From Candidatus Hadarchaeales archaeon (GTDB lineage Archaea > Hadarchaeota > Hadarchaeia > Hadarchaeales > Hadarchaeaceae), in contig JAWCLG010000003.1 in NCBI GenBank assembly GCA_038851075.1, positions 33,820-97,819 on the forward strand: a DNA stretch of 64,000 nucleotides, written 5' to 3'. This document shows positions 32,054 through 62,077 of the stretch, piece by piece. How positions within the stretch are numbered: position 1 is the first letter of the stretch; every line of letters begins with the position of its first letter. Position numbers and translations under genes: made by a program. The notes under the pieces were generated by a model that saw only the letters and a list, made by a program, of their open reading frames with translations, searched no databases and was not told the DNA's origin.

Positions 32054-33112
32054 ATGACCGTTTCCTCGATATACGTAATTTCTCCGGCGGAATGCTCAGG
32101 AAAAACCAGCATCATAGTTTCCATGGCCATCAAAGCGAGGGAACTCGGAAAAAGCGTCGGGTATTTCAAGCCGATAGGATACAGATCTCCGGTGGAACAG
32201 ACCGAAGAGCACATTGACGACGATGCAAAAAATATTAAGGAGATACTCGGCCTTGAAGAAGAACCAGATGTCCTGTGTCCAGTCGTTATCGACAAACAAG
32301 ATTTTTTGAAGAATATCTCGCAAAAAAATGAAATAAGAAAAAGAATAATCGAATGCTATAAAAAAGTATCTAAAGGAAAAGATCTGCTGCTCATCGAGGG
32401 TCCCCACTCAATTTCAGGGGGAATATCTATCGACTGCGCAGCACCGGATCTAGCCAGAGAGTTTGGCTCAAGAATAATAGTGGCAGCAAACGCAGAAAAC
32501 GACTCATTTATGGAGGAGCTTCTACTTACCGTAAAATTCTGCGAGAGGTACAGTATAACTCCTGCAGGAGCGATACTCAACAAGGTTTCAGATTACTATT
32601 CTGAAGTGGAGAGCGCGGTGAAATCTATTCTCGAAAAAGAGGGAATCGAGCTGCTGGGATCTATACCAAAGAACGAGATACTCGGCTCACCCCGGGTTCT
32701 TGAGATAGTCGACTCTATTGGCGGAGATATCATCGCAGGAAGAGAGGGTTTGGGCAACATCGTCCAAAACCTGATGATCGGGGCAATGTCTCTGGAAAGC
32801 GCGATGAAACATTTCCGCAAGAGCACAAAAAAGCTCGTGATAGTCGGCGGGGACAGAACCGACATCATCTCGGCGGCTCTGGAAACGGGGGCCTCCGCGG
32901 TTGTCGTCACCGGAAATCTCTACCCGAGTGTAAAGATACTGCCAAAAGCGGACGAGCTTAAAACACCGGTGCTGCTTGTCCCATATGACACCTACACGGC
33001 GCTTAGCATGATTCAAAAAATAGTTGGGAAGATAAAACCCAATGACAGAGCTAAAATTGACGTCATAAAAAAATTTGGAGCAAACATCAACTTGGATAAA
33101 ATCATGAACTAG
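32054..33112 (+). CDS. Pta-N-terminal-like protein: DTBS/CobQ-type P-loop domain plus DRTGG domain
   Basis: The SGKTSI P-loop with YFKPIG is followed by the DRTGG signature VIVGGDRTDIISAALETGASAVVVTG. Confidence 0.7.
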   Translation: MTVSSIYVISPAECSGKTSIIVSMAIKARELGKSVGYFKPIGYRSPVEQTEEHIDDDAKNIKEILGLEEEPDVLCPVVIDKQDFLKNISQKNEIRKRIIECYKKVSKGKDLLLIEGPHSISGGISIDCAAPDLAREFGSRIIVAANAENDSFMEELLLTVKFCERYSITPAGAILNKVSDYYSEVESAVKSILEKEGIELLGSIPKNEILGSPRVLEIVDSIGGDIIAGREGLGNIVQNLMIGAMSLESAMKHFRKSTKKLVIVGGDRTDIISAALETGASAVVVTGNLYPSVKILPKADELKTPVLLVPYDTYTALSMIQKIVGKIKPNDRAKIDVIKKFGANINLDKIMN

Positions 33113-42100: not shown

Positions 42101-42202
42101 TGCGGGGGTAGCCAAGCCAGGTCAACGGCGCCAGTCCCTATGGGCGAAACTCAAGATCTGGTCTCCTAGGAGTTCGGGGGTTCGAATCCCCTCCCCCGCA
42201 CC
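42101..42202 (+). tRNA. tRNA-Leu (anticodon CAA), class II, with a 14-nt intron (42134..42147) in the 5' strand of the anticodon stem (30/31); CCA encoded
   Basis: Fold: GCGGGGG TA GCC AAGCCAGGTCAAC GGC G CCAG[TCCCTATGGGCGAA]A CTCAAGA TCTGG TCTCCTAGGAGTT(C) GGGGG TTCGAAT CCCCT CCCCCGC A CCA. Removing the bracketed 14 nt restores the CCAGA/TCTGG stem. A BHB core was verified by hand. Confidence 0.8.
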
Positions 42203-46240: not shown

Positions 46241-47170
46241 CTAGCTCTTAACCCAATTAACCCAGTCAACATACCATTCAACATTAGGATTGCTGCCAGC
46301 CGTCGATATCATGAATGGACACCATATATACTGAAAGTCAACGTTCCTGAAGGCGCTCTTCGGGATAGTTATCTTCTCCCAGCCCCCGGTATTGGCCCAT
46401 CCATAGTTACCAATCCATACTTGGTTTGACTTTATACCTTTGTTGTCAGTAGTCAAATTCCAGCTCTGGAGCTCAACATGCAGATTCACGGGACTCTTTA
46501 CATAGAACTCTAAGGTGTCAACACCAGACAAGTCTATATAATGGGTTGCTGAGGGATCAATACCTCCTGGCATGCTGGAATTTGCCCCGACAAACACTCC
46601 CCATCCCGCGTACGCATTAGACTCCGGACCGTTTCGGGTGTACCAACAGGAAACTCCCTCAGGTATCCCGGAAACACCGGTATACTGCCCTTCAACATAA
46701 GGAGCGGTTAGACCGTACTCTCCCTCCTGTGGCCAAACAAATGCATCCACCTGAAGACCCAACTCCGGCAAAAGCCCGGCATCATTGAAAACCGCTATGT
46801 ACTCCCCAGCCGTACCGCCACCAACGGTTATGCTCCTTGAATAGGTATCACTCTGACCACCGCTAGATGTAACCGTCAATGTAACGGTATAGGTACCGGC
46901 AGAGAACTGGTGTGTTGGATTTCGGTCCGTGCTCGTGTTTCCGTCTCCAAAGTCCCATGACCATGAAACAATATCTCCGGTGGAAGTATCCGTGAACGCG
47001 ACATTCTGTCCAGCCTGCGGGTTAGAAGGGCTGTATGTGAAACTTGCATTCAGTCCACTTGGAGTACTTCCACCACCAGATGACAGAATCAAAGCAGCTG
47101 CGATAACTACAATTATAATTACCACGAGAATGATCACGACCGGAAGATTTAGCTTCCTTCCCCCACCCAT
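46241..47170 (-). CDS. Signal-anchored PKD-domain protein with C-terminal 'module A'
   Basis: The PKD signature is FTYSPSNPQAGQNVAFTDTSTGDIVSWSWDFGDGNTSTDRNPTHQFSAGTYTVTLTVT. The C-terminus carries AYAGWGVF...LEFYVKSP.NLHVELQ...GWEKITIPKSAF...WYVDWVNW. Confidence 0.65.
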   Translation of the reverse strand: MGGGRKLNLPVVIILVVIIIVVIAAALILSSGGGSTPSGLNASFTYSPSNPQAGQNVAFTDTSTGDIVSWSWDFGDGNTSTDRNPTHQFSAGTYTVTLTVTSSGGQSDTYSRSITVGGGTAGEYIAVFNDAGLLPELGLQVDAFVWPQEGEYGLTAPYVEGQYTGVSGIPEGVSCWYTRNGPESNAYAGWGVFVGANSSMPGGIDPSATHYIDLSGVDTLEFYVKSPVNLHVELQSWNLTTDNKGIKSNQVWIGNYGWANTGGWEKITIPKSAFRNVDFQYIWCPFMISTAGSNPNVEWYVDWVNWVKS

Positions 47171-47213: not shown

Positions 47214-47222
47214 TATTTAAAA
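47214..47222 (-). promoter_or_regulatory. Candidate TATA box of the 47170->42245 transcription unit
   Basis: The minus strand reads TTTTAAATA about 45 nt upstream of the ATG at 47170. An AGGTGGG Shine-Dalgarno-like element lies between them. Confidence 0.5.
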
Positions 47223-47230
47223 GCCTTTTG

Positions 47231-47253
47231 TCAATTTTTGGTCTGATTTTGAA
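47231..47253 (-). promoter_or_regulatory. Copy of the locus-specific YCAAAATNAG direct-repeat motif (candidate operator)
   Basis: The minus strand reads TTCAAAATCAGACCAAAAATTGA, versus GTCAAAATTAGCCCAAAATTAGG at 56246. It lies 9 bp upstream of the candidate TATA box. Confidence 0.55.
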
Positions 47254-47308
47254 AAATTGCAAAACAGGATATGCGTCTCATACCTCAGATTTGAAACATC
47301 AGTGCCAC

Positions 47309-48466
47309 TTACGGCTCATAAAAAATGTCGTCCAGATAAATCGTGGCTCCACCAGGATTGCTGGTGCTATTTGTAACCCAGCAGAACCCTCCGATAACGT
47401 TGCTAAGATCCTTCCCGCTGAGATTTATTGTGTACTGTCTCCAGTTATCAGAAAGCACTATCACGCCGGTTGAGACTGCAGGATAAATTGAATCACTATA
47501 TTCTTTTCCAGTTTCGCGTATTCCTCCGACCTTAAACTCCGCCTTCTCACCGCCGTTCTTCCCTCTTGCCCAGAATGTCAGCTTTGTCGTTCCAGTAAGA
47601 TCCTGACCGGCATAGTCTCCCCAGTTTCCTTCGGGATATTGCCAGTATATGCCAGACCATACTGAAGTTCCAGACGGGGTATATACTATCTTTATGCAGG
47701 TGTCGCCAGAGTGGGGATTATCTGTGGAAGAGGGGTCGTACTGTATATCCCCGATGACACCCATCCACCCAGAGGGTATGAACATGTCCTCCACAGAGTA
47801 AGTGGGTAACGAACTTATGGTGATCCTTTTGATTGCATTATCCATCAATCCGGAATTATCTATCACAGTGAGAACCACGCTGTAACTTCCAGGAGCACTG
47901 TAGGTGTGAGTGACCTCTCTGCCGGACCCGGTTGTACCATCTCCGAAATTCCAGCTGTAGCCAACGATAGATCCGTCCTCGTCATTGGAATTCTCTCCGC
48001 TGAAGAACACCTCCTCCCCCACCATTGCTGTGGAAGGTCCTGAAATTCTGGCCTCCGGTGGCTTTTCACTCGTACTTACGGTTATTCTGAAGGAAGATGT
48101 GACCTGACCACCTTTTCCATCCCTGACGGTAACCGTGATGTTGTATACTCCTGCTGACGGGGGAGTCCATACCAGTGTGTTTTCTGTATTCGAACTTATC
48201 TGCGGATCCTGCGAACAGCTCCACGTATAGGATAAGGTGTCCCCATCGAAATCTATCGCTTTCACTCCAATTGTAACTGGGGTCCCCGCCTGCGCTCTGT
48301 TATCCGGAGGAGCCTGCACCGACTGTATCTGCGGCGCTCTGTTCGTTGAAAATGTCGGGCCAAAAAAGGCAAGAACGATTCCTATTGAAACACCAATTAC
48401 GATACTCAAAACGACTAACAAAAGATAATTTCTCTGGTGTGGCATACTTTCCATATACTCCGTCAA
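47309..48466 (-). CDS. Signal-anchored protein with two PKD/Ig-like domains and C-terminal 'module B'
   Basis: The PKD signatures are YTWSCSQDP... and VGYSWNFGDGTTGSGREVTHTYSAPGSYSVVLTVID. The C-terminal SGWMG...GDTCIKIVY...WSGIYWQYPEGNWG...KLTFWARGKNGGEKAEFKVGG...GGFCWV...ATIYLDDIFYE is homologous to the GH26 protein C-terminus. Confidence 0.65.
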   Translation of the reverse strand: MTEYMESMPHQRNYLLLVVLSIVIGVSIGIVLAFFGPTFSTNRAPQIQSVQAPPDNRAQAGTPVTIGVKAIDFDGDTLSYTWSCSQDPQISSNTENTLVWTPPSAGVYNITVTVRDGKGGQVTSSFRITVSTSEKPPEARISGPSTAMVGEEVFFSGENSNDEDGSIVGYSWNFGDGTTGSGREVTHTYSAPGSYSVVLTVIDNSGLMDNAIKRITISSLPTYSVEDMFIPSGWMGVIGDIQYDPSSTDNPHSGDTCIKIVYTPSGTSVWSGIYWQYPEGNWGDYAGQDLTGTTKLTFWARGKNGGEKAEFKVGGIRETGKEYSDSIYPAVSTGVIVLSDNWRQYTINLSGKDLSNVIGGFCWVTNSTSNPGGATIYLDDIFYEP

Positions 48467-48960
48467 AACTTTTCACCACAGTTAAATTACTGAACTAAGT
48501 TTAAATATATTTTCAAAGATGTATGCAAAATTTTGGTCTCATACCACTGATGGGCTCTTGTCCTCAAGCAGAGCATTACTTCTCGGGCCCCCAACCAAAT
48601 GAAGAGGCTCGGCATGACCGCGGTACAGGCGCTCTTAAAAAACTAAACGGCATCGCTAGGTGATGCTGGCCAAACTCACAGCCGCGAACTCCCGCCTAAT
48701 TTTCTGCGGGACCCAAGGCGAAATTTATTTTTATGCACATTTGACTATTCTGGGGATTCAGATTAAGATAGAAGTCGCGAAAAAATCGTGGCTTACAAAT
48801 GATAAGATACGGCTGAAGTTGGTGTAAGAGTTTCAAGATTGAGGTAAAACTTCAACACCCTTTTAATTTGCACACTTCGGATTTTCTATTAGAACACCAA
48901 CAGCCGGACTCACATGTAAGTCAAATAAGGTAATAATAAAGAAAACAAAATATCTGGGGT

Positions 48961-49485
48961 ATGTGGATGAAGGAACTTTTTAACTCTAAATTCGAGGAAA
49001 TAAAACAGTTCCTAACCGAAACATTCAAGATCGCTGCAATTTTTTCAATCGTTTTCTTTTCAATTCATATATCCTTAATTATAGCACTCCACAACAATAA
49101 CCCTGCCTTTGTTGTTACATCAAACAGCATGTTACATCAAAACGAATCCTGGAGAGATTACTACACTGCGATGGGTATAGACACTTCAAATTTCCCCATC
49201 CAAGGAGGATTCGCACGTGGCGATATTTTATTGGCCGAAGGGGTTAACCCAAACAACATTGCGGTTGGTGACGTGATAATCTTTGAAGCCAGCGGCACCG
49301 AAATCGCGCACAGAGTTGTTGAGATAAGCTTCTCAGATAACAAACCTAAATTCAAAACAAAGGGCGATGCAAATATGTATTCTGCATGGTCTGAATCCTC
49401 AATTTTTCCAGAAAACATAAAGGGCAGAGTAGTTTTTGTACTCCCAAAGATTGGACATATCTTCCTTTGGTTAAGCGGAAAATAA
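48961..49485 (+). CDS. Signal peptidase I, archaeal/ER (S26B, Sec11/SipW) type
   Basis: N-terminal TM helix, then box B TSNSM (Ser), GDILL and GDVIIF, box D IAHRVV (His instead of Lys) and box E KGDAN. There is an unusual ~25-aa insertion between box B and GD. Confidence 0.75.
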   Translation: MWMKELFNSKFEEIKQFLTETFKIAAIFSIVFFSIHISLIIALHNNNPAFVVTSNSMLHQNESWRDYYTAMGIDTSNFPIQGGFARGDILLAEGVNPNNIAVGDVIIFEASGTEIAHRVVEISFSDNKPKFKTKGDANMYSAWSESSIFPENIKGRVVFVLPKIGHIFLWLSGK

Positions 49486-49527: not shown

Positions 49528-50169
49528 TTAATAGCGAGTCCACCGGATATAATCAATGTAAAAAGTGACTGGAAAAACTGGTGTGCCTCCGTAAATCGTG
49601 CACATAAAAGGAGAAGTAACATTACTCAAATTGCTGGTGAAATCTGAAACCGGAATGGATATCTCCTGCCATTCAAAATCGCCGTTCCACCCGTAAGCAC
49701 TAATCCATTTGGAACATTTCATATCGGATGCGGTTATCTCAATCCTCAGATCTTTTCGAGTCAGGACCCAGAACTTCAGATGCCCTCCAGCATAAGGTGA
49801 CATGTCGCGCCCGTCCCAGAAGTAGCCCCAACCCGCTGAGTCCGAAGTTATGGTCTTAAAACATATCTGACCCTCAGGAACTCCAATTTCCCCACATTGT
49901 GAATTGAAGTAGCCTTCTCCCCACGTGTATATATGGCTGTTTGGACCCCAGCCTGCAAATCCTGCGTCGCTGTAAATCACAAACTCTTCAGGAGACGATG
50001 GTTCTGTGACATTAACTGTAAGAATTCCTCTGCCCACGATTATTGATGCAGCTGTATAACTCACTGTCAAAGACACGGCGAATACTAAAACTAGAAAAAG
50101 AAAACGGCCTAAAGACCTGAATGCCCCACGACCCCAGTCAGTTTTTTTTGCCAAACTCTTTGCCTCCAC
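49528..50169 (-). CDS. Signal-anchored stand-alone 'module A' protein
   Basis: 213 aa, consisting of an anchor plus FVIYSDAGFAGWG...PEGQICFKT...AGWGYF...LKFWVLTRKDLRIEI...WQEISIPVSDF...FYIDYIRW. This aligns with the C-termini of the 42245 and 46241 ORFs. Confidence 0.55.
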   Translation of the reverse strand: MEAKSLAKKTDWGRGAFRSLGRFLFLVLVFAVSLTVSYTAASIIVGRGILTVNVTEPSSPEEFVIYSDAGFAGWGPNSHIYTWGEGYFNSQCGEIGVPEGQICFKTITSDSAGWGYFWDGRDMSPYAGGHLKFWVLTRKDLRIEITASDMKCSKWISAYGWNGDFEWQEISIPVSDFTSNLSNVTSPFMCTIYGGTPVFPVTFYIDYIRWTRY

Positions 50170-50252: not shown

Positions 50253-50753
50253 CTATTCCTGGTTGACGTCAAAGTACAGCGTTGACTGGAAGCCCTGCCC
50301 CACAGTATTGTAGTGGCCGACCTGTACCTTGAGTATAATGTAGCTGTTTCCACCGATGCTGAAGGTTCCATGAGACTGACCACCACTGTAGAGATCAGTT
50401 CCATCTAGTTTCCACACGTTCATCCATACTCTATCACCGCCGCCTGAGACGAACAGATTCGACATCACTGAGCTTCCGGTGTTCCTCAATTTGACATAGC
50501 AGGTCGCACTGGTTCCCTGGGGGATCTGCACGCTTGTTATCTCCTGGGTTGCATTCTGGTCGCTGTAGAATTTGACTTCTATAGCAGTGGGTGGCGCAAC
50601 AACCGTAATGCCAAGCGTTCCTTGACCAACTACCACGGATGCGGCCACATAACTGCCAGCTGCTGCAATTGCTATAAGGCTAACAAGAAGTGCTCCCACG
50701 ATCGCCCGAGAGGTGCCCCTTGCGCTGCTTTCCAGCAACCATTCATCACTCAT
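50253..50753 (-). CDS. Small signal-anchored beta-rich protein of unknown family
   Basis: 166 aa with a strong GGAGGT Shine-Dalgarno 8-10 nt upstream. After the TM segment, the motif SYVAASVVVGQGTLGITV is shared with the 49528 ORF (SYTAASIIVGRGILTVNV). Confidence 0.45.
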   Translation of the reverse strand: MSDEWLLESSARGTSRAIVGALLVSLIAIAAAGSYVAASVVVGQGTLGITVVAPPTAIEVKFYSDQNATQEITSVQIPQGTSATCYVKLRNTGSSVMSNLFVSGGGDRVWMNVWKLDGTDLYSGGQSHGTFSIGGNSYIILKVQVGHYNTVGQGFQSTLYFDVNQE

Positions 50754-50818
50754 TTTCTTTTACCTCCTTTTTTATTTTTTCGATTAAGTCTATGATAAAA
50801 ACATTTAATATGAGTTTA

Positions 50819-50880
50819 CCCTAATTTTGAGCTAATTTTGACAATTTTGGTTAATTTTGAAATAGTTTTGACGATTTCGA
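50819..50880 (-). promoter_or_regulatory. Phased array of about 5 YCAAAATTA half-sites (11-bp period) upstream of the 50753 start
   Basis: The minus strand reads CGTCAAAACTAT TTCAAAATTAA CCAAAATT GTCAAAATTAG CTCAAAATTAG GG. The last 24 nt differ at one position from GTCAAAATTAGCCCAAAATTAGGG at 56247..56270. Confidence 0.6.
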
Positions 50881-53607: not shown

Positions 53608-53621
53608 GGTCAAAGTTATGC
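53608..53621 (+). promoter_or_regulatory. Degenerate copy of the locus motif upstream of the 53669 ORF
   Basis: GGTCAAAGTTATGC versus GGTCAAAATTAGCC, about 50 nt upstream of the ATG and in the same orientation relative to the gene. Confidence 0.3.
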
Positions 53622-53668
53622 AACGTATCATTTTTATAGCAACATACTTAAAGATATTATGAAAACAT

Positions 53669-54571
53669 ATGGATAACGTTCAAGAGTGGTTAGAACCAAC
53701 AAAAAAAATACCTACTGCAATAGTAACTGTTATAATTTTGATTATTTGTGTTGCCTCTGCTTTTACAGTTATAATCATTTTCACACCAAAAGCTGCAGAC
53801 AATGGTTCCACAGGTAGTGGTGGAGGTAATGGAACGGCAAGCCAAAATATGCCACCTACGGCCATGTTTACTTACTCACCGAGTTCCCCAACTGTGGACG
53901 ACGATGTATTCTTCATTAATATGTCCACTGACATCGATGGCACAATCATAAGCTACAGCTGGAACTTTGGGGATGGAAATACAAGCACGGATCAAAATCC
54001 CATTCACAAATATTCTACAGCTGGTACTTACTCTGTTAGACTCACCGTAACAGACAACGGTGGGAAAACGGGGGATTATGAGAAATCAATAACTATTGGA
54101 GGAACCGGAGAAAACGTCTTCCAAGACTTCGAGTTAAACAACGGCACACCAGGAGCATATTTCTATAACGCTTGGAGAGCAAGCTCCGCATTTGAAACAA
54201 ATATAGTGCAGGGAGGGATCAGATCTGTGAAGTTTGTGGTACCCCCACCAGATAATCAGAATAATGGCGCCACTCTCGGGATAAATGTCGCCTCACCAAC
54301 TGGGACAATCGACCTCACTAATGCAACGAATATTTCACTATGGGTTTATGATACTCAAGGGAACAATACCATAGAACTCAAACTTAAAGACAAAAATGGA
54401 ACCCTCGGTCCAGGCATTTGGTCAAGCTTGTCGTCTGTATGGAACACTTGGACAAAGATAACTTGGAACATCAGCGAATATCAGGGTGTCGATATGAGCC
54501 AGATCGCAGCAATAGAACTTTATGAGTGGAATGGGGGCACATACTACTTTGATACTATTGCATACAAATGA
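53669..54571 (+). CDS. Signal-anchored PKD-domain protein with a C-terminal CBM-like beta-sandwich (third type)
   Basis: The PKD signature is FTYSPSSPTVDDDVFFINMSTDIDGTIISYSWNFGDGNTSTDQNPIHKYSTAGTYSVRLTVTD. The C-terminus carries TNISLWVYDTQGNNTIELKLKD...WTKITWNISEY...YYFDTIAY. Confidence 0.6.
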   Translation: MDNVQEWLEPTKKIPTAIVTVIILIICVASAFTVIIIFTPKAADNGSTGSGGGNGTASQNMPPTAMFTYSPSSPTVDDDVFFINMSTDIDGTIISYSWNFGDGNTSTDQNPIHKYSTAGTYSVRLTVTDNGGKTGDYEKSITIGGTGENVFQDFELNNGTPGAYFYNAWRASSAFETNIVQGGIRSVKFVVPPPDNQNNGATLGINVASPTGTIDLTNATNISLWVYDTQGNNTIELKLKDKNGTLGPGIWSSLSSVWNTWTKITWNISEYQGVDMSQIAAIELYEWNGGTYYFDTIAYK

Positions 54572-54856: not shown

Positions 54857-56098
54857 CTAATATTTTACCTGGCTTTTTACATGAGTAACGTTTCTAATAT
54901 TTTTTATCTCTTGCAAGATTGAAGGTGACTTTTCAAGAGCCACGCCCTTCATTATTTTTATATCATCCAACATGTGCCAATTGGTCTGACCGCCAGTGCT
55001 GGCTGAAAATCCGATTCCGTCATACGCTCGTTCTATTTTTCCGCTCCATTCCAGAACTTTATTCTCATCGATATGGACTGTCACAGCAGAGTCCTCAACT
55101 ATAACTTTTACATAGTGCCATTTAGAATCGACAACCCTGGGCTCTTCCACGTACTCAAGGTGATTTTTTGGATGGTTTTTGATAAGCGCAAGATGAGGAT
55201 ATGGAGGATCTCCGTAATCTACGTTTTGTACTCCATCAAACTCTATCCCATATCCTGGAATTGGAGCAACTCCAGACACAAAACCCAAGTTTCCACCGTC
55301 ACACGGCCAATAGTTTTTTTTCTTGTAAAACATGAAAACAAAACCATCGCCTCCACTACCGCCTCCGATCTTGTATTTGAAATCCGCAATGAATGGAGAT
55401 TTTATTCCTTTTTTAAGCCACATTATCCCGGCCTGCCATTCCTGATTTTTTGTGAGAACAACACATTTTTTAGAAATGTCATAATATGCATCGCGCACCA
55501 TAATCCACATCCTCTTATTAATATTGGTAGACTTTGCCTCAAGCAAAGATTGTACGTCAACTGTACCGCTTGAGATGTTGTTGATTATGTTTGTGTAGTT
55601 TATACGCAGCACTGGGGTTTCTCTTAATTGGAACGTTTCAAGTGTACAGACTCTTTTCATAAAATACTCGGAAAAAGATTCATTTTCTTTTGAGGATAAT
55701 ATATCTGGATCCTCCTCAGCCTTTGGGATGTATTTCAGATATGTGAGAAGATCGTTTATTTCCATTTCCTTAAACTCGCCATTTAGATCCTTGACTTTTA
55801 TTATTTCTCTGCCCAGCCTTTCTTTTATAGTTCGATATGCTGAAAGTCCCTCATCAGTAAGGAAATAAACATTCTTAAATCTGCCAGTGCTTCTTGAGAA
55901 TTTTCTGTCGTGCGCGACCAGTTTATTTTTTTCCAGTTCCTTTATGGTTGTTGATATTCGCTCCAGAGACATATTAATATTTTCAGCGATACCTGCTTGT
56001 GTCAAAGAATGAGGAAACTCATCATTATAACTCCTGACGATATCCCTATTGTCACCTAGATAGATGATTATCTTTTCATCTAACCGTATGGTTAACAT
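54857..56098 (-). CDS. Putative transcription regulator: N-terminal winged helix plus C-terminal L-type (legume-like) lectin / ConA-like domain
   Basis: The N-terminus LTQAGIAENINMSLERISTTIKELEKNKLVAHDR...YFLTDEGL is wHTH. The C-terminus aligns to L-type lectin blocks: GDGFVFMF (ADGxAFF), GGNLGF, GYGIEFDGVQN...DPPYPHLALIKN (VAVEFDT.QN..DP...HIGIDVN) and GIGFSASTGGQTNWHML (VGFSAxTG....H.I). There is no signal peptide or TM segment. Confidence 0.65.
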   Translation of the reverse strand: MLTIRLDEKIIIYLGDNRDIVRSYNDEFPHSLTQAGIAENINMSLERISTTIKELEKNKLVAHDRKFSRSTGRFKNVYFLTDEGLSAYRTIKERLGREIIKVKDLNGEFKEMEINDLLTYLKYIPKAEEDPDILSSKENESFSEYFMKRVCTLETFQLRETPVLRINYTNIINNISSGTVDVQSLLEAKSTNINKRMWIMVRDAYYDISKKCVVLTKNQEWQAGIMWLKKGIKSPFIADFKYKIGGGSGGDGFVFMFYKKKNYWPCDGGNLGFVSGVAPIPGYGIEFDGVQNVDYGDPPYPHLALIKNHPKNHLEYVEEPRVVDSKWHYVKVIVEDSAVTVHIDENKVLEWSGKIERAYDGIGFSASTGGQTNWHMLDDIKIMKGVALEKSPSILQEIKNIRNVTHVKSQVKY

Positions 56099-56175
56099 TA
56101 CACCCCTATTTTAATATATATTTCTCTCTTTTATTTAAATATTTTTCGCTTTAAAGTTTTTTAATTATTTTTTTT

Positions 56176-56185
56176 TAATTTTGGG
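56176..56185 (-). promoter_or_regulatory. Inverted half-site of the locus motif on the regulator side of the divergent promoter region
   Basis: The plus strand TAATTTTGGG equals CCCAAAATTA on the minus strand, so it is co-oriented with the regulator gene. Confidence 0.35.
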
Positions 56186-56244
56186 ATTTTTAAAAACCTT
56201 AAATTTCTAATTATTTAAAAAAATAATTTTTTTAATATCACTAT

Positions 56245-56270
56245 TGGTCAAAATTAGCCCAAAATTAGGG
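56245..56270 (+). promoter_or_regulatory. Locus motif copy 1 (candidate operator) in the regulator/GH26 divergent region
   Basis: TGGTCAAAATTAGCCCAAAATTAGGG contains two YCAAAATTAG units 11 bp apart. Confidence 0.6.
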
Positions 56271-56286
56271 CGTATTTACCAAAAAC

Positions 56287-56308
56287 TGGTCAAAATTAGC
56301 CCAAAATT
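56287..56308 (+). promoter_or_regulatory. Locus motif copy 2, exact 22-bp direct repeat of copy 1
   Basis: TGGTCAAAATTAGCCCAAAATT is identical to 56245..56266. The start-to-start spacing is 42 bp. Confidence 0.6.
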
Positions 56309-56369
56309 TACAAGGGTTAACATCCCTATTAAAAGCAAGTAGCAGTTGCTCGCGTCAGAATTCCCAAAG

Positions 56370-56377
56370 TTTAAATA
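56370..56377 (+). promoter_or_regulatory. Candidate TATA box of the GH26-ABC operon
   Basis: TTTAAATA matches the archaeal TTTAWATA consensus and is preceded by the purine-rich CCAAAG. It lies only ~19-31 nt from the possible starts (TTG 56396, GTG 56408), which suggests a leaderless or very short-leader mRNA. Confidence 0.5.
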
Positions 56378-56395: not shown

Positions 56396-57976
56396 TTGAG
56401 GATTATCGTGGTAAACAAAAAAATCGTCTTGGCTACCGGGCTTTCGATAGCCGCGGTGATTATCGCTGTCTTCTTCATTCTTAACTTAGAAAAAAGGTGG
56501 TGGATCGAGGAAACCCGAGAAGATCAGGTTTACTTCGGTGCTTTCGTGCCCGGTGTTGAGGCATCAATTAAACTTCTTGATCAGCTTGAGAGCACTATCG
56601 GACAAAAGCTAACGATAATAAACACATTCCTGCCATCCAGCGCTGATTTTCCGGCCGAGTTCTGCGAACGCATAATCTACCACGGAGCAATACCCATGAT
56701 AACTTGGATGCCCCAGCCCAGAGACCCGAGCACCGAACACGGCAGAGTGCTGGACAGCATCGCCGGGGGCAACTGGGACAGTTATATAAGAAAATGGGCC
56801 GTGGATGCAAGAAACTTCGGTAAACCGGTGTACATTAGATGGGGGCATGAGTTCAACGGATACTGGTACCCCTGGAGCGTCCCAGCGAACGAAAACAGCC
56901 CCGATAAATTTGTGGCGGCATGGAAGCACGTTCACGACATATTTGCCAGAGAGGGTGCAACAAACGTCCAGTGGGTATGGTGCCCGTACCTGCGCAGCAA
57001 CCCTGATGAGGCGTGGAACGATCCACTGCTCGCATATCCGGGTGACGAGTACGTGGACTGGATCGGAATCGATGAGTACAACTGGGGATCAAGCTTCATA
57101 TGGAGCAACTGGCTTGAGTTCAGCGAGATCTTCTCGAACAAGGTGAGGATATTCAGCACGCACTTTCCGACAAAACCGATAATGATCGCCGAGGTCGGGT
57201 GTACCGAGGAAAATGAGCTACCGGGTCAGACGAAAGCCCAGTGGGTGAGAAACATGCTGGACTCTCTAAAGTGGATGACTCCAATACGTGCTGTTGTTTG
57301 GTTCAACTCATTTAAGGAAACAGACTGGCGCATGGAGTCGAGCGAAAGTTCTCTGGATGCTTTTAAAGAGATTTTTAGGGATGCGTACATAGCAGACGAT
57401 GCGAGAGGTCTCTGGAAGATCCCTGATAACTTCAGATCTGACCCGAACATATGGCCCACTTCAACAGTAAGGGCGGAGATGCCGTTCTACGTTTACGGAG
57501 ACAACGGTGGAAACTTTGCTGCCTCTGGGTGGATGGGGGACTACCAATCCATGACCCTTTCAGAGTACTGTACGGAAACCCCAGCTGTAGGAGACACCTG
57601 CATGAAGGTAAAGTACGACATAACAACCAGCAGGAAGGTCTGGGCAGGAATCTACTGGCAGAACCCGCCCAACAACTGGGGTAACGAAGATGGAGGATAT
57701 GACCTCTCAGATGCAACAAAGTTAGTATTCTGGGCCAGGGGCGAAAACGGAGGGGAAATTGTGAACTTCAAAACAGGCGGTATAAGCGGCAGTTACCCGG
57801 ACTCGGCTTTCGTCGTGCTCGGAACAATAACCCTGTCAAAAGAATGGCGAGAGTATGAGATTGACCTCAGGGGACACGATCTGTCATACATATCCGGTGG
57901 GTTTGTTTGGGTCGCCAAACAGGACCAGAACCCCAAGGGGTGCACGATATACCTAGACGAGATAAGATATGAATAA
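56396..57976 (+). CDS. Signal-anchored GH26-like glycosidase (mannanase/lichenase family) plus C-terminal 'module B'
   Basis: GH26 blocks are present: YIRWGHEFNGYWYPW (acid/base Glu), YPGDEYVDWIGIDEYNW and PIMIAEVGC (nucleophile Glu). The C-terminal ~160 aa are homologous to the 47309 ORF C-terminus. The start may be the GTG at 56408. Confidence 0.8.
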   Translation: MRIIVVNKKIVLATGLSIAAVIIAVFFILNLEKRWWIEETREDQVYFGAFVPGVEASIKLLDQLESTIGQKLTIINTFLPSSADFPAEFCERIIYHGAIPMITWMPQPRDPSTEHGRVLDSIAGGNWDSYIRKWAVDARNFGKPVYIRWGHEFNGYWYPWSVPANENSPDKFVAAWKHVHDIFAREGATNVQWVWCPYLRSNPDEAWNDPLLAYPGDEYVDWIGIDEYNWGSSFIWSNWLEFSEIFSNKVRIFSTHFPTKPIMIAEVGCTEENELPGQTKAQWVRNMLDSLKWMTPIRAVVWFNSFKETDWRMESSESSLDAFKEIFRDAYIADDARGLWKIPDNFRSDPNIWPTSTVRAEMPFYVYGDNGGNFAASGWMGDYQSMTLSEYCTETPAVGDTCMKVKYDITTSRKVWAGIYWQNPPNNWGNEDGGYDLSDATKLVFWARGENGGEIVNFKTGGISGSYPDSAFVVLGTITLSKEWREYEIDLRGHDLSYISGGFVWVAKQDQNPKGCTIYLDEIRYE

Positions 57977-58016
57977 CACCACAAGTATTAAAAGAAAACC
58001 CGATGAAGGAGAAGAG

Positions 58017-59411
58017 ATGAAAATGATGATGATTTCCTTCAGGAAAGAGAACAGGGGAGTATCAAAAACACTCCCTGTGATAATTATTATTGCAATAGCG
58101 GTGTTCGGAATTCTTATTTATAGAAGCCTGGGCGGCGGTGCCGAAATGCGCTGGTGGACCGTTCACTCAGGCGCATGGGGGCACTCTGAATGGCACACGT
58201 ATTCCCTTGAAGAATACGACAAGCTTTACGGACACCTTATTGAAAGAACCGACTATGACAATCCAAACTTTAAATCTTCAATACTCAACGCAATGCTCGC
58301 TGGTGACCCGCCGGAGATATGGCATTCCTGGGGGGGGACCCAGCTGAAGAACTTTGTTGAGATGGGGTACGTTGAAGACCTGACCGACCTGATGAATGAG
58401 AGCTGGGCACTGGATATACTTCCCCTCGAAAGCCGCGATAAGCTGATATGGAACTCCACCTGGAACGGAAAAAACTATGGATTTCCATACAGCGTTGGAG
58501 TTATCCAGATATACGTTAACAAAGACCTGTTCGATTCGTGCGGCATAGATTTGCCATCAGTTGAAAACGATGAAACATGGACATGGAGTCAGTTCATTGA
58601 CGCGATACAGACACTTAAAAATCACGGGATAACTCCAATAACGATCGCGGGGACTGAGACATGGCAGCTCTCATTCTGGTATATGTACCTTGTAGACCGA
58701 ATTGGAGGACCGGAGTACTTCACCAAAACGCTGAACCGCTATCCGGGATACTCCTTTGAAGACAATGTGTTCTTGGAGGCTGCCAGAAAGTGCAGGGAGC
58801 TCGTGGAGATGGGTGCATTCCAGCAGACATTCATGGCGGACGGATACGACAAGGCCATAACGATGTTCTCCCAGGGACAGGCCGCAATGTACCTTCAGGG
58901 CTCCTGGGAGATAAAAACTATGAAAACTTACTATAATCAGAACCTGAACGTTGACGTTATCAGGTTCCCCCTCATGGACAACAGCGCCAACGGCGACCCG
59001 CACTCAATTGTTGTGAACGTTCAGGACTACTTCTGCGTCTCATCAACTACGAAGAACAAGGAGGCAGCGTTCAACTTCATAAGGCTGCTTGGCAGAGAGG
59101 ACGTGATTAGAAAATTTGTTGAAAAGGCCGGGGATATATGCGTGTTCGACTCCAGAGTCGGGGGAGGAGTAGACATTCCATCCTCGCTCTACGAGCCGGT
59201 GATCAACAAGCAAATCGAAGAGTTCAACAACTCCACCCATACACAGATGCCCTGGGATCAGTACTCTCCGCAGCAGTTCGCACAGAAGCACCTAGAGTGC
59301 ATGAAGAGGCTCTTCGATGGCACGTGGACTCCAGAGAAGGTGGCCCAAGAGCATGAAACAATAGCCCAATCCCTGAAAACGAGTGGTTACCTGCCGGTCT
59401 CATATGGATGA
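58017..59411 (+). CDS. ABC transporter sugar-binding protein (solute-binding family 1), signal-anchored
   Basis: An N-terminal anchor is followed by a typical family-1 SBP layout (PEIWHSWGG...NGKNYGFPYS...AAMYLQGSWE). I chose the start at MKMMM (58017). Confidence 0.85.
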   Translation: MKMMMISFRKENRGVSKTLPVIIIIAIAVFGILIYRSLGGGAEMRWWTVHSGAWGHSEWHTYSLEEYDKLYGHLIERTDYDNPNFKSSILNAMLAGDPPEIWHSWGGTQLKNFVEMGYVEDLTDLMNESWALDILPLESRDKLIWNSTWNGKNYGFPYSVGVIQIYVNKDLFDSCGIDLPSVENDETWTWSQFIDAIQTLKNHGITPITIAGTETWQLSFWYMYLVDRIGGPEYFTKTLNRYPGYSFEDNVFLEAARKCRELVEMGAFQQTFMADGYDKAITMFSQGQAAMYLQGSWEIKTMKTYYNQNLNVDVIRFPLMDNSANGDPHSIVVNVQDYFCVSSTTKNKEAAFNFIRLLGREDVIRKFVEKAGDICVFDSRVGGGVDIPSSLYEPVINKQIEEFNNSTHTQMPWDQYSPQQFAQKHLECMKRLFDGTWTPEKVAQEHETIAQSLKTSGYLPVSYG

Positions 59412-59429
59412 TGCCGGAAGTGGGGTAAT

Positions 59430-61193
59430 GTGAAGAGAAACTTTTTACCCTACATCTTCATTTTACCTGCACTTGTCCTATTTCTGATGTTCTTCATATT
59501 CCCGAATGCCTACGTTTTCTATTTGTCGATGCACGAACTTGGTCCGAGCGGTGAGGCGCAGGAAAACTGCCTTACCAGCATTTACCCTCGATACCTGAAT
59601 GAGAACAACTTCTATCGGGCAGAGTTTGATATAAAATCCGGAATTTTTTGCCTGATGAGGATATACGAAGGAAACGAAGAAACTCTCATTTCTGACGGTT
59701 TTTCATCTGGTAGGGTCGGAACCTGGTACAAATTAAGGGTTGAGGTGATAAAAAAGGACAACGTCGATACGATAAGATCTTGGATAATCGGAATTGAGAA
59801 CGGATATAAAATCTTTGAAAACTCGTGCGCTCCGCTGAACCACGGCGGACTTGCCCTGTCAGCATATTTCAACAGGGATTTTACTGTGGTCTGGGACGAT
59901 CTCCGGATGATGGAATATCTCGAAGATAAGCCGAATGTGGCTTTTGGCGAAGAAACAAGTTCAGACATTGAAAACTGGGAAAGGAGCAGAACCATTGAAA
60001 TCGAGGGAACTGGTAAAGCACTGGAAAACTATCCGATCCAGTTCGATATTGAATGGCAGACAGACATGAGGGCTGACTTTGGAGATATCCGGTTTACGGG
60101 GGAAAATGGAGCCGAATTTCTGGACTACTGGATCGAGAGGTACTCGCGCGGTCAGCTTGCAACCGTCTGGGTGAAAATCCCATTATTGCCGGAGAACGGT
60201 ACCGCAATCAAAGTTCACTACGGCAACCCTGAGGCAACTTCATCAAGCGAGATTCGGAAAACTTTTGTATTCGGGGACGATTTCGAAGACGCCGCCTGGA
60301 CGAACGCCCACTTTGAGATGTCCGAATGTGAAGGGTGCTCGCAAGTGGCTGAAAACGGAGAATATGTGATGATGGGCAATGCTGGGTCTCTTGTGTTCAC
60401 CAATATAAACCTCCCAGAAATTCCTGAAAACATTGTTTTGGAGGTAAACGTGAAGTTGAAGAAGGTAGGCACAAGAGAATTTGGTCTTTCGTTCGTCGGG
60501 GCAAAAAATTTCTTGGAGCTATTCTCAGACAACATGTTTCTGATGTCTCTGCTTCTGGTCGCAGGCATAGCGATACAGTCCATAGTGGTGCAGGTCCCCG
60601 CGGGTCTGGGGCTCGCTCTTGCGCTGAGGAACATCAGGGGATCCCGCACTTTCCTAACCATATTCTTCCTCCCGATGACAATATCCCTCGTCACACTCTG
60701 CCTTATGTGGAAGTACCTCATATTCAGTCCTCAGGGCATTCTTAACTCAACCTTTGGGATGAGCCTCGACCCGACCAAAGATGCGTTCACGCTCTTCCTC
60801 GCGGTGAACATCATCGCGGACTGGATATATATTGGACTTTACACTGTGATGTTCAACAGCGCCATGAAAAGCATACCAAAATCTGTTTTTGACGCCGCCA
60901 AGGTCGATGGGCTCTCAGGATTCAAAACCCTTAGAAAGATAGTGATACCTGCCCTGAAGAACATCATTCTGGTATCGATAATAATGTGCATCTCCGGGAC
61001 TTTCAAAACATTTGACACGTGGTGGGTGCTGGGAGGAGGTCCGACCGCCCCGCTTCATCTGCCCTCAACCTATCTGGTGACAAAAATAGGGTCCGGTCTA
61101 ATAGGATATGCCTCAGCCATAGCTGTGATCAGTTTCTTCATATGTCTGGTCATAGTGCTAATCCAGCTGAAGGCGATGAAGGTGAAGGTATGA
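59430..61193 (+). CDS. ABC sugar permease (MalF/UgpA type) with a ~330-aa extracytoplasmic DUF2341/LamG-like insertion after TM1
   Basis: TM1 is YIFILPALVLFLMFFIFPNAYVFYLSM. The insertion contains ADFGDIRFTGENGAEFLDYWIERYSRGQLATVWVKIPLLPENGTAIKVHYGNPEA, a DUF2341 signature. The normal permease core then resumes at FVGAKNFLELF and carries the EAA-type loop AAKVDGLSGFKTLRKIVIP. Confidence 0.85.
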   Translation: MKRNFLPYIFILPALVLFLMFFIFPNAYVFYLSMHELGPSGEAQENCLTSIYPRYLNENNFYRAEFDIKSGIFCLMRIYEGNEETLISDGFSSGRVGTWYKLRVEVIKKDNVDTIRSWIIGIENGYKIFENSCAPLNHGGLALSAYFNRDFTVVWDDLRMMEYLEDKPNVAFGEETSSDIENWERSRTIEIEGTGKALENYPIQFDIEWQTDMRADFGDIRFTGENGAEFLDYWIERYSRGQLATVWVKIPLLPENGTAIKVHYGNPEATSSSEIRKTFVFGDDFEDAAWTNAHFEMSECEGCSQVAENGEYVMMGNAGSLVFTNINLPEIPENIVLEVNVKLKKVGTREFGLSFVGAKNFLELFSDNMFLMSLLLVAGIAIQSIVVQVPAGLGLALALRNIRGSRTFLTIFFLPMTISLVTLCLMWKYLIFSPQGILNSTFGMSLDPTKDAFTLFLAVNIIADWIYIGLYTVMFNSAMKSIPKSVFDAAKVDGLSGFKTLRKIVIPALKNIILVSIIMCISGTFKTFDTWWVLGGGPTAPLHLPSTYLVTKIGSGLIGYASAIAVISFFICLVIVLIQLKAMKVKV

Positions 61194-62077
61194 AAACCGA
61201 ATTCGAGAAGGAATGGCACGGTAAAAAGATACTGAAATACGCCGTCCTGGTGATTTTCGCCGCGATAATACTTGTTCCCATAATTATGCTCGTGGTGGAA
61301 TCACTGAAAACCGGTGAAGAGTTCGTCAAGAATCCCCTGTCCCTTCCATCAAATCCGCAGTTCTCAAACTACATCGACGCCTGGAGAGGTGAGACCACAA
61401 CAATGGTCCCGGGACAAAAAATCAATCTCGGGATAGGAATCGAAGATGGTTTCATAAACAGTCTCATAGTGGTGATTGCTTCCGTTTTTATAATTCTGGG
61501 CATAGGGCCGCTCGCCGCATACGCACTTTCATCCCTTGACCTGAGAGGAAGACGAGCATATTTCTACGTTTTTATGAGCGGCATGTTCATCGGAGGACCT
61601 GCGCTGCCTGCCCTCTGGATGCTGACAAACATGCTCGGCATTTACAACACATATCTGGCGCTGATACTCCCATATGTAGCCGGGGCCCTGCCGTTCACCA
61701 TCCTGATAATGTGGTCGTATTTTAAATCCACCTCAAGGTCCCTGTACGAGGCCGCAAAGATAGACGGTCTCTCCCAGTTCAAAACTTATTACAAAGTGAT
61801 GCTTCCAACCGCCATGCCCGCGCTCATGACGGTAGCCATACTGCAGACAATATGGATATGGAACGAATTTTTGCTATCGCTTGTGCTAATACAGAACCCC
61901 AACTTTTACACAATCCCCAGGGCGGTTTACTTCTTCTCAACCGCGGCCACCAAAGGACCGGGCTGGGGGATATTCTTCGCCGGAGTTCTGCTGGCAGCCC
62001 TTCCCACAGTGATAGCATACTTGCTGTTCTCTGAACAGATAAAGAGAGGCATGAGCATGGAGGTCTTCAAGGGCTGA
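61190..62077 (+). CDS. ABC sugar permease (MalG/UgpE type)
   Basis: The ATG at 61190 overlaps the upstream stop (ATGA). The EAA loop EAAKIDGLSQFKTYYKVMLP is present. I rejected the track ORF's 57-aa N-terminal extension. Confidence 0.9.
   Translation: MKTEFEKEWHGKKILKYAVLVIFAAIILVPIIMLVVESLKTGEEFVKNPLSLPSNPQFSNYIDAWRGETTTMVPGQKINLGIGIEDGFINSLIVVIASVFIILGIGPLAAYALSSLDLRGRRAYFYVFMSGMFIGGPALPALWMLTNMLGIYNTYLALILPYVAGALPFTILIMWSYFKSTSRSLYEAAKIDGLSQFKTYYKVMLPTAMPALMTVAILQTIWIWNEFLLSLVLIQNPNFYTIPRAVYFFSTAATKGPGWGIFFAGVLLAALPTVIAYLLFSEQIKRGMSMEVFKG

Follow-up and report, generated by a model that had tools for sequence, protein, structure and literature searches.

The repeat array that lies upstream of the gene for a 166-aa protein in a Candidatus Hadarchaeales metagenome-assembled genome (MAG) is a genuine, conserved and regulon-specific cis-regulatory element. 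The motif recurs both at the promoters of functionally linked genes and at orthologous promoters, as is expected of a regulon motif, and it most likely serves as the docking site for the gene cluster's own regulator, an undescribed protein that joins a winged helix-turn-helix (wHTH) domain to a predicted L-type lectin domain. On balance, it is rather probable that the array is an upstream activating element in a polysaccharide-utilisation regulon, where we infer that this particular protein binds it, that the binding is cooperative, that the effect is activation and that the signal is a sugar. All positions given below refer to the window, i.e., the whole analysed stretch of 64,000 nucleotides.

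Judged by domain content, the region between 42 and 63 kb of the window is a glycan-utilisation cluster. It encodes two GH2/72-like glycosidases, three PKD/CBM-like secreted proteins, an archaeal signal peptidase I, small proteins of 166 and 213 aa, a GH94 phosphorylase, a GH26 enzyme and a sugar ABC transporter. The gene for the 166-aa protein (QXG10_01645; 50253..50753, minus strand) is the first of a pair and is probably co-transcribed with the gene for its distant 213-aa paralogue (49528..50169, minus strand), to which the signal peptidase I gene (48961-49485, plus strand) is convergent. The 166-aa protein carries an N-terminal hydrophobic anchor or signal, belongs to no Pfam family and matched only itself in a homologue search; the orthologues of the small protein considered here were drawn from the loci fetched via the regulator homologues. 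The GH26 glycoside hydrolase gene (56396..57976, plus strand; start codon TTG 56396 or GTG 56408), whose product has a C-terminal putative carbohydrate-binding domain, is the first gene of an operon with sugar-binding protein and permease genes (57969-62077).

Rereading of positions 50819-50880 on the minus strand gave the same sequence as that quoted in the preliminary description, and the roughly five half-sites claimed there correspond to five YCAAAAYT units spanning 50820..50871 on that strand. These are arranged as a proximal dimer, contained in a 24-mer at 50819-50842, a distal dimer at 50842-50860 and an outer single unit at 50863-50871. All units have the form YCAAAAYT(A/G) and read, on the minus strand, TCAAAACTA (50863-50871), TCAAAATTA (50852-50860), CCAAAATTG (50842-50850) and again TCAAAATTA at both 50833-50841 and 50822-50830. 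Tandem Repeats Finder describes the array as period 11 with 4.9 copies, and the C-to-C spacings are 11, 10, 9 and 11 bp (mean 10.25 bp). The period of 11 bp previously assigned to four of the units is consequently somewhat too generous, with steps of exactly 11 bp in just two of the four intervals. Similarly, the YCAAAATTA half-sites are real but do not represent independent elements: in the pooled arrays, the base before the invariant C alternates between T and then C, and neighbouring units are spaced by exactly 11 bp in 28 of 41 intervals, which together define the repeating unit as a 22-bp tandem dimer, TCAAAATTnnnCCAAAAWT, with a T-type unit followed by a C-type unit. The promoters that carry the motif have one to four such dimers, mostly 11 bp apart and in phase with the helix. 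A hidden dyad symmetry within the dimer was considered and rejected; in one copy, 10 of the 13 positions of CCCAAAATTAGGG fit a palindrome, a feature that the other lineages do not share.

The array lies 66-127 nt ahead of the ATG at 50753, as originally reported, and is followed on the minus strand by a GGGTAAAC block (50814..50821) in the BRE position, situated between the proximal dimer and the predicted TATA-like element TATTAAAT (50803..50810). An alternative TATA-like element, TTTTTATC, is predicted at 50794-50801, and a Shine-Dalgarno-like GGAGGT (50762..50767) is found 8 nt ahead of the start codon. The W7 run of this promoter begins 18 bp past the C of the last unit, and in 11 of 17 cases examined across the arrays a TATA-like W7 run begins 15-18 bp past the second C of the last dimer. 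At about a dozen promoters in 7 lineages, the sites lie upstream of the predicted BRE/TATA without overlapping it. The tight geometry between array and TATA-like element is not universal, the exceptions being the GH26 promoter and that of lineage L129, where the array is located about 170 bp from the next gene.

A second array of five units occupies 56248..56309 on the plus strand, between the regulator gene and the GH26 operon, with units starting at 56248, 56259, 56279, 56290 and 56301; it is likewise called by Tandem Repeats Finder with period 11. The proximal 24-mer of the first array, GTCAAAATTAGCTCAAAATTAGGG (50819-50842, minus strand), differs at one base from GTCAAAATTAGCCCAAAATTAGGG in the second (56247-56270, plus strand), and each faces the gene that it precedes (166-aa protein, minus strand; GH26, plus strand), in agreement with the preliminary description. 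Downstream of the second array, a TATA-like TATTAAAA is predicted at 56327..56334, 25 bp past the last unit, and a second TATA-like element, TTTAAATA, is located at 56370..56377, about 30 bp ahead of the GH26 start; the latter is the one conserved in L006 and L001 and lies about 60 bp from the array end. Ahead of TATTAAAA stands GGGTTAAC (56314-56321), an arrangement that resembles the promoter module of the 166-aa gene. On the regulator's own strand (minus), a single unit, CCCAAAATTAAAA (56173..56185), is found 86 bp before the regulator start codon and may serve autoregulation. Furthermore, one dimer, TCAAAATCAGACCAAAAATTG (47232..47252, minus strand), precedes a TATA-like TTTTAAATA (47214-47222, minus strand) upstream of the PKD/CBM gene at 46241-47170 and the glycosidase genes beyond it; this dimer is also present in the orthologous promoters of L001 and L004.

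The motif occurs more often in the window than expected by chance, and its arrays are restricted to the cluster. YCAAAATTA occurs 8 times in the 64 kb against 1.5 expected, a number reached in none of 100 shuffles, and CAAAA-N6-CAAAA occurs 7 times against 0.37 expected, with all seven occurrences falling between 47.2 and 56.3 kb. Runs of at least three YCAAAA on the same strand, with gaps of no more than 23 bp, are found only at 50829-50870 and 56249-56302; shuffled windows contain on average 0.025 such runs and never a run of five. No array is present at the housekeeping promoters of the window (RNA polymerase, AOR, ACS, topoisomerase VI, aIF5A and others). A general promoter feature of the organism is ruled out by the absence of the motif from all window promoters outside the cluster. 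Within the cluster, it is missing from the window's own GH94 and ABC-ATPase promoters. Nor does the array correspond to any known RNA element, as no Rfam family matched the region 46-58 kb at E values of 1 or below. A scan of genome contigs with YCAAAATTAGNYCAAAATT returned at least 119 single chance matches in unrelated bacteria, with no Hadarchaeales among the matches listed. When these bacterial loci were used as a control, phased runs proved rare even in DNA preselected for one dimer; 11-bp repeats that resemble the arrays, by chance or slippage, were seen in the unrelated bacteria L031, L094 and L109.

Conservation across lineages is evident from the loci of the regulator homologues, since every homologue with a fetched contig lies in a syntenic cluster. 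Besides the window, arrays were found in L001, L004, L005, L006, L007, L129 and L130, whose regulators are 44-56% identical, and in all 8 lineages with enough upstream sequence the motif array is located upstream of the regulator gene and points away from it. L008, where no array appears within the 136 bp present upstream on its contig, a stretch shorter than the usual offset of 130-160 bp, stands outside this comparison. The first dimer begins 130-159 bp ahead of the regulator start codon in seven lineages; for L005, the raw offset of -258 becomes about -130 after restoring the approximately 42 residues missing from a shortened start call. In an unbiased count over the 300 bp upstream of the regulator gene, the top 8-mers, shared by 7 of 8 lineages, are CAAAATTA, TCAAAATT, CCAAAATT and CAAAATTT, which are approximately 95-175-fold enriched and always antisense to the regulator. 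In L001, L004, L005, L007 and L130, the gene on the opposite side of the array is the small-protein orthologue; in L006 it is the orthologue of GH26, which holds this place in the window too. The window's small-protein gene has relocated away from the regulator gene while retaining a separate array. The preliminary description had named a lack of conservation in orthologous promoters, together with a lack of protein binding, as the outcome that would reduce the array to low-complexity, AT-rich sequence. The array is kept at the promoters of the small-protein orthologues of L001, L004, L005, L007 and L130 and at that of the GH26 orthologue of L006, and the recurrence there of the same motif, mostly with exact 11-bp spacing, does not uphold the low-complexity reading.

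Pairwise comparisons show where this conservation lies. When the window is aligned with L006, identity reaches 67-72% in the array and TATA blocks, the best-kept parts of the spacer, compared with 40-50% in the flanks. Between the window and L130, the proximal module, which comprises the proximal dimer, a GGGTAAA block and the TATA-like counterpart ATATTAA, is identical at 32 of 43 positions without gaps. The GGGTAAAC block is kept in the L130 promoter of the 166-aa gene orthologue as well as in the GH94 promoters of L001, L004 and L005. Across the non-redundant loci, 41 of 46 dimers are intergenic, a count that includes the GH94-promoter dimer of L001, L004 and L005, placed in the short spacer between the regulator and GH94 genes. 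Of the other five, three occupy the 3' end of the regulator ORF. This places the dimer just upstream of GH94 in L129 and L007 (the contig end cuts the gene in L007), and in L008 some 460 bp separate it from the GH94 start. The L001 genes preceded by dimers are p164, GH94, PKD, sugar-binding protein and ATPase.

These data bear directly on the very improbable reading of the array as a functionless tandem repeat, i.e., an AT-rich 11-bp minisatellite, or as an iteron-type replication origin of an integrated element. Iterons are phased 22-bp repeats beside an AT-rich stretch and a winged-helix gene, an arrangement shared by the present arrays, both of which are called by Tandem Repeats Finder, and similar 11-bp repeats exist in the unrelated bacteria mentioned above. 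Against this stand the position, orientation and core of the motif, which are kept across lineages with approximately 45-55% protein identity while the spacers diverge, and the copies at several promoters at a fixed distance from TATA-like elements. Moreover, the gene survey shows a syntenic metabolic cluster without Rep, Orc1/Cdc6, integrase or mobile-element genes. In particular, an origin of the iteron or ORB type is ruled out by this syntenic metabolic context, by the lack of a Rep or Orc1 gene and by the copies at several promoters.

The same two arrays are predicted to be the two most curved segments of the window. According to a wedge model, the array of the 166-aa promoter ranks first and the second array ranks second, with values of 80 and 75 degrees against a window mean of 16 (sd 9). 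Phased A-tracts, such as the CA4-6T repeats of kinetoplast type, form intrinsically curved DNA and also occur upstream of strong promoters, and the C-A4-T2 tract present here once per helical turn fits this pattern. It is nevertheless rather improbable that the array acts as a protein-independent curved-DNA element, in which phased A4T2 tracts would boost the promoter or keep chromatin off with no dedicated regulator. The predicted curvature and the A-tract at the motif core favor such an element, whereas the conservation extends outside the A-tract, to the 5' C, the preceding T/C alternation and the trailing TT(A), and neither this alternation nor the exact 11-bp spacing in 28 of 41 intervals would be needed for curvature alone. 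In addition, the element is confined to one regulon and always lies beside one regulator gene, and single dimers, too short for much bending, are kept at a fixed distance from TATA-like elements. Curvature more likely supports the binding of a protein than accounts for the function by itself; it probably facilitates cooperative binding or contact with the core promoter, and the DNA shape predicted for the phased A4T2 tracts may be part of the mechanism.

The candidate trans-acting factor is encoded at 54857..56098 on the minus strand. Its 413-aa product, 100% identical to NCBI QXG10_01660, begins with a winged helix (residues 1-125) that a linker connects to a predicted L-type lectin domain (residues ~190-385). 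No other DNA-binding protein is encoded between 42 and 63 kb. The AF2 model of residues 1-125 (pLDDT 88) is a winged helix whose best Foldseek matches are MepR, SlyA, ST1710 and YodB, with E values of 2.5e-4 and above and TM scores of about 0.5; on the basis of this model, the N-terminus is predicted to adopt a MarR-type winged-helix fold. At the sequence level, the protein falls below every cut-off of the curated HMMs (best TIGR04176, 20-23 bits against a cut-off of 88), and the winged-helix part gives E values of at least 0.0085 against PDB profiles. The Pfam/NCBIfam search yielded weak matches to MarR, Crp, Lrs14 and Sta1-like HTH families, all below their cut-offs, and no TrmB domain (PF01978). 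Neither a receiver nor a Trans_reg_C domain is encoded in the cluster. The lectin domain matches PF18483 with an E value of 1.4e-18 and 67.9 bits, under the gathering cut-off of 78.3. Its EFD...N.DYNDPPYPH metal and sugar loop aligns with legume lectins in a PDB profile comparison, and its Foldseek matches include peanut lectin and the M. jannaschii lectin domain 7elv (TMt 0.71).

About 15 full-length homologues with 44-56% identity make up the regulator family, in which neither the recognition helix, SLER(V/I)ST, nor the wing, GRF, varies. A scan of metagenome contigs with the regulator alignment returned a single locus, L128, that encodes a secreted lectin-only protein rather than a regulator, and a full-text literature search gave no description of the motif or of a lectin-fused regulator. 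The wHTH-lectin protein is proposed as the binder because the array always adjoins its gene and because its invariant recognition helix and wing match the invariant core of the motif. MarR-like dimers normally recognise inverted repeats, not direct repeats, and this preference counts against the assignment. Another protein encoded elsewhere, of the Lrp/AsnC, TrmB-like or chromatin type, could in principle occupy the array while the wHTH-lectin protein has other targets; the window covers just 64 kb of the genome, and the link between protein and site is one of genomic association. We regard this as quite improbable, taking into account that the array adjoins the wHTH-lectin gene in 8 of 8 lineages, whatever gene lies opposite, that this protein is the sole DNA-binding protein of the cluster and that its invariant recognition helix fits the equally invariant motif core.

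In archaea, activator sites are located upstream of BRE/TATA, from where the bound factor helps to recruit TBP or TFB, whereas repressor sites coincide with the core promoter or lie downstream of it (PMC5512572, PMC4706686). Since the arrays are located just upstream of the BRE/TATA-like elements, in the position of an archaeal activator, activation is the preferred reading of their effect. In the proposed mechanism, two winged helices of the regulator would engage each dimer from the same face of the DNA, separated by one helical turn, and adjacent regulator molecules would interact laterally along the array, whose DNA is predicted to be intrinsically curved. The promoter-proximal copy would contact the pre-initiation complex and help recruit TFB/TBP. 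The lectin domain, which would be cytoplasmic, is suggested to sense an imported oligosaccharide, so that the glycosidases, the ABC transporter and the secreted 166- and 213-aa proteins could be switched on together.

An alternative that retains both the array and the regulator assigns the latter a repressing or dual role: it would polymerise in the absence of inducer, spreading over or looping the BRE/TATA of both divergent promoters, and a sugar would release it. This model draws on TrmB, the best-known archaeal sugar regulator, which is a sugar-released repressor, on the dual-acting TrmBL1 and on the MarR-fold proteins, which are mostly repressors. Also in agreement with it are the placement of the arrays, flanked by divergent promoters and with a constant offset of 130-160 bp to the regulator gene, and the single unit in the regulator's own promoter (56173-56185). 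It is nonetheless unlikely, given that in about a dozen promoters the sites end before they reach the BRE/TATA-like elements or the start region, and that there is little archaeal precedent for repression from such an upstream position.

The array would fall into the known class of arrays of transcription-factor sites upstream of promoters, and its candidate regulator is unusual. One close arrangement is that of EarA at the fla operon of Methanococcus maripaludis, where four 6-bp sites immediately upstream of BRE are needed for activation and EarA is thought to help recruit TFB (PMC5512572). Both systems place several copies of a short consensus just upstream of an archaeal BRE/TATA. The EarA sites differ in being 6 bp long, of another sequence, bound by a protein of another family and dedicated to motility genes, while the Hadarchaeales array is built of ~9-bp units with an 11-bp period, organised in 22-bp dimers that are the proposed binding sites of a multi-promoter sugar regulon. 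Ptr2 of Methanocaldococcus jannaschii, TFB-RF1 of Pyrococcus furiosus and the Sulfolobus ara-box likewise involve activator sites that recruit TBP or TFB (PMC5512572) and lie directly upstream of BRE/TATA. Ptr2, however, belongs to the Lrp family and has two palindromic sites, there is one site each in the TFB-RF1 and ara-box cases, and none of them is a phased A-tract array.

At the level of the protein, the TrmB/TrmBL1 regulators offer a close parallel, and TrmBL1 activates when bound upstream of BRE/TATA (PMC4706686). Like them, the Hadarchaeales protein would be a one-component regulator with an N-terminal winged helix and a C-terminal sugar-binding domain (here lectin-like and putative), encoded in or near glycoside-hydrolase/ABC-transporter clusters. 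Unlike them, it has no TrmB domain and its candidate sensor has a predicted L-type lectin fold. The Thermococcales glycolytic motif (TGM) that goes with TrmB/TrmBL1 is moreover a palindrome, TATCAC-N5-GTGATA, in contrast to the direct repeats of the Hadarchaeales arrays; this palindrome was not found, apart from a lone half-site TATCAC at 56236-56241. A TGM/TrmB reading of the element is accordingly ruled out, the repeats being non-palindromic and the regulator lacking the TrmB domain.

The geometry itself recalls the bacterial Pho box. There, direct repeats of 7 bp alternate with spacers of 4 bp, for a period of 11 bp; promoters under strong regulation have several boxes in a stack, and the winged helices of PhoB, a response regulator of the OmpR/PhoB type, bind head to tail on one DNA face. 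Direct repeats, the 11-bp period (exact here in the 28 of 41 spacings given above) and the use of one DNA face are common to the two. The Pho box differs in that it belongs to sigma-70 promoters of bacteria, replaces the -35 element and is bound by a phosphorylated response regulator, whereas the Hadarchaeales promoter is of the archaeal TATA/BRE type and no receiver domain is encoded in the cluster. Finally, the likeness to curved A-tract DNA consists in the C-A4-T2 tract per helical turn and in the highest predicted curvature of the window, and the difference in an element that is conserved outside the A-tract, restricted to one regulon and tied to one regulator gene.

Hadarchaeota are known mostly from metagenomes. 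To our knowledge, very few archaeal transcription activators have known sites, and none has been described for this phylum. The present analysis offers a testable regulon, composed of a 22-bp operator, a defined promoter geometry, a candidate lectin-fold regulator and targets in beta-glycan breakdown and uptake. The array could help to predict polysaccharide-responsive genes in uncultured thermophilic archaea, and the promoter together with its regulator could provide a sugar-inducible pair for archaeal genetics. A wider proposal, to which we give tentative weight only, is that the protein represents an undescribed class of archaeal one-component sensors in Hadarchaeota, in which a lectin-wHTH filament on curved phased repeats would activate a whole polysaccharide-utilisation locus (PUL). 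If true, the lectin-wHTH sensor would be the archaeal counterpart of the bacterial PUL regulators, with a lectin fold as the intracellular ligand sensor.

Two further single units in the cluster are weak candidates for regulon sites. The first, the palindromic CCAAAATTTTGC (48525..48536, minus strand), is located upstream of the TATA-like ATATTTAAAC (48499-48508) of the gene at 47309-48466. The second is the degenerate unit GGTCAAAGTTA (53608..53618, plus strand); 13 bp downstream of it follows the TATA-like TTTTTATAG (53631-53639), which belongs to the PKD gene at 53669-54571.

The candidate array-binding factor of the glycan-utilisation cluster is encoded on the minus strand at 54857-56098. 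In this protein a winged helix of MarR-like type is joined to a cytoplasmic lectin domain of the L-type (legume) fold, in which the metal and sugar loop is retained. Full-text searches of the literature returned no description of a fusion between these two domains. Only about 15 full-length homologues of the regulator were found; a source is named for just two of these, in each case a Hadarchaeales MAG. The gap between the start of the regulator gene and the phased array of YCAAAA-type units (56099-56246, 150 bp) is extremely AT-rich. A period-24 repeat lies within it at 56175-56221, together with one motif unit at 56173-56185 on the strand of the regulator. This region may hold the promoter from which the regulator is transcribed, along with a site for autoregulation.

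At the opposite end of the regulator gene, a recurrent promoter-like layout is observed in loci from other lineages where GH94 follows the regulator. In these loci the dimer, a 22-bp tandem pair of units, is located where the regulator ORF ends, or just beyond that point (L001, 11129-11170; L004, 8628-8670; L005, 5683-5725; L007, 6241-6280; L129, 1879-1920). After the dimer, L001, L004 and L005 have GGGTAAAC (or GGGCAAAC, GGGTAAC) and then a TATA-like element; L007 and L129 display more diverged versions of the same layout. Judging from this succession of dimer, block and TATA-like element, GH94 seems to possess an internal promoter of its own, of the dimer-bearing type used in the cluster.

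Two adjacent promoters of the cluster share an exact 10-mer, GGTATGAGAC, at 47275-47284 (-) and 48536-48545 (-), in both cases immediately distal to the YCAAAA units and followed by TTTTGCA, with a gap of 5 nt in one of the two promoters and of 10 nt in its neighbour. It could represent an additional motif or a promoter fragment that was duplicated. Near-identical 11-bp tandem repeats (TTCAAAATTAG or CCAAAATTAGA, 3-5 copies) are also present in unrelated bacteria, namely a cyanobacterium (L031, 4035-4057), an unclassified bacterium (L094, 448-470) and an alphaproteobacterium (L109, 5701-5734), where they are probably slippage repeats. Their occurrence shows that the bare repeat sequence is not unique to the Hadarchaeales system.

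The 166-aa protein encoded downstream of the minus-strand array (50253-50753, -) and its 213-aa neighbour (49528-50169, -) are distantly related paralogues, and the two are conserved together in L001 (8159-9731), L007 (3640-4840) and L130 (218-1463). In the window, both genes are adjoined by an archaeal type-I signal peptidase gene (48961-49485, +; TIGR02228, 64 bits), the equivalent position in L001 being occupied by a 123-aa ORF. This layout resembles the TasA/SipW arrangement, in which a dedicated peptidase processes secreted proteins. In the sugar transporter, the first ABC permease (59430-61193, +) has about 300 extra residues inserted behind its first membrane helix, with a DUF2341 domain among them; its orthologues in L001 and L004, of 341 aa, lack this insertion.

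A 99-nt tRNA at 42102-42200 (+), flanked by an M28 peptidase gene and by the first glycosidase gene, is detected by Rfam (RF00005, 39.4 bits) but not by ARAGORN; as it is longer than usual, it may contain an archaeal intron. A single 821-aa ORF at 33102-35567 (-) encodes a complete aldehyde:ferredoxin oxidoreductase (AFOR_N and AFOR_C) together with an OMP-decarboxylase/HUMPS-family domain, and is either an unusual fusion or an in-frame read-through of two genes. The gene at 27975-29831 (-) encodes an acetyl-CoA hydrolase/transferase with a GNAT acetyltransferase domain fused at its C-terminus, and is oriented divergently to a gene at 29941-32037 whose product is like ADP-forming acetyl-CoA synthetase.
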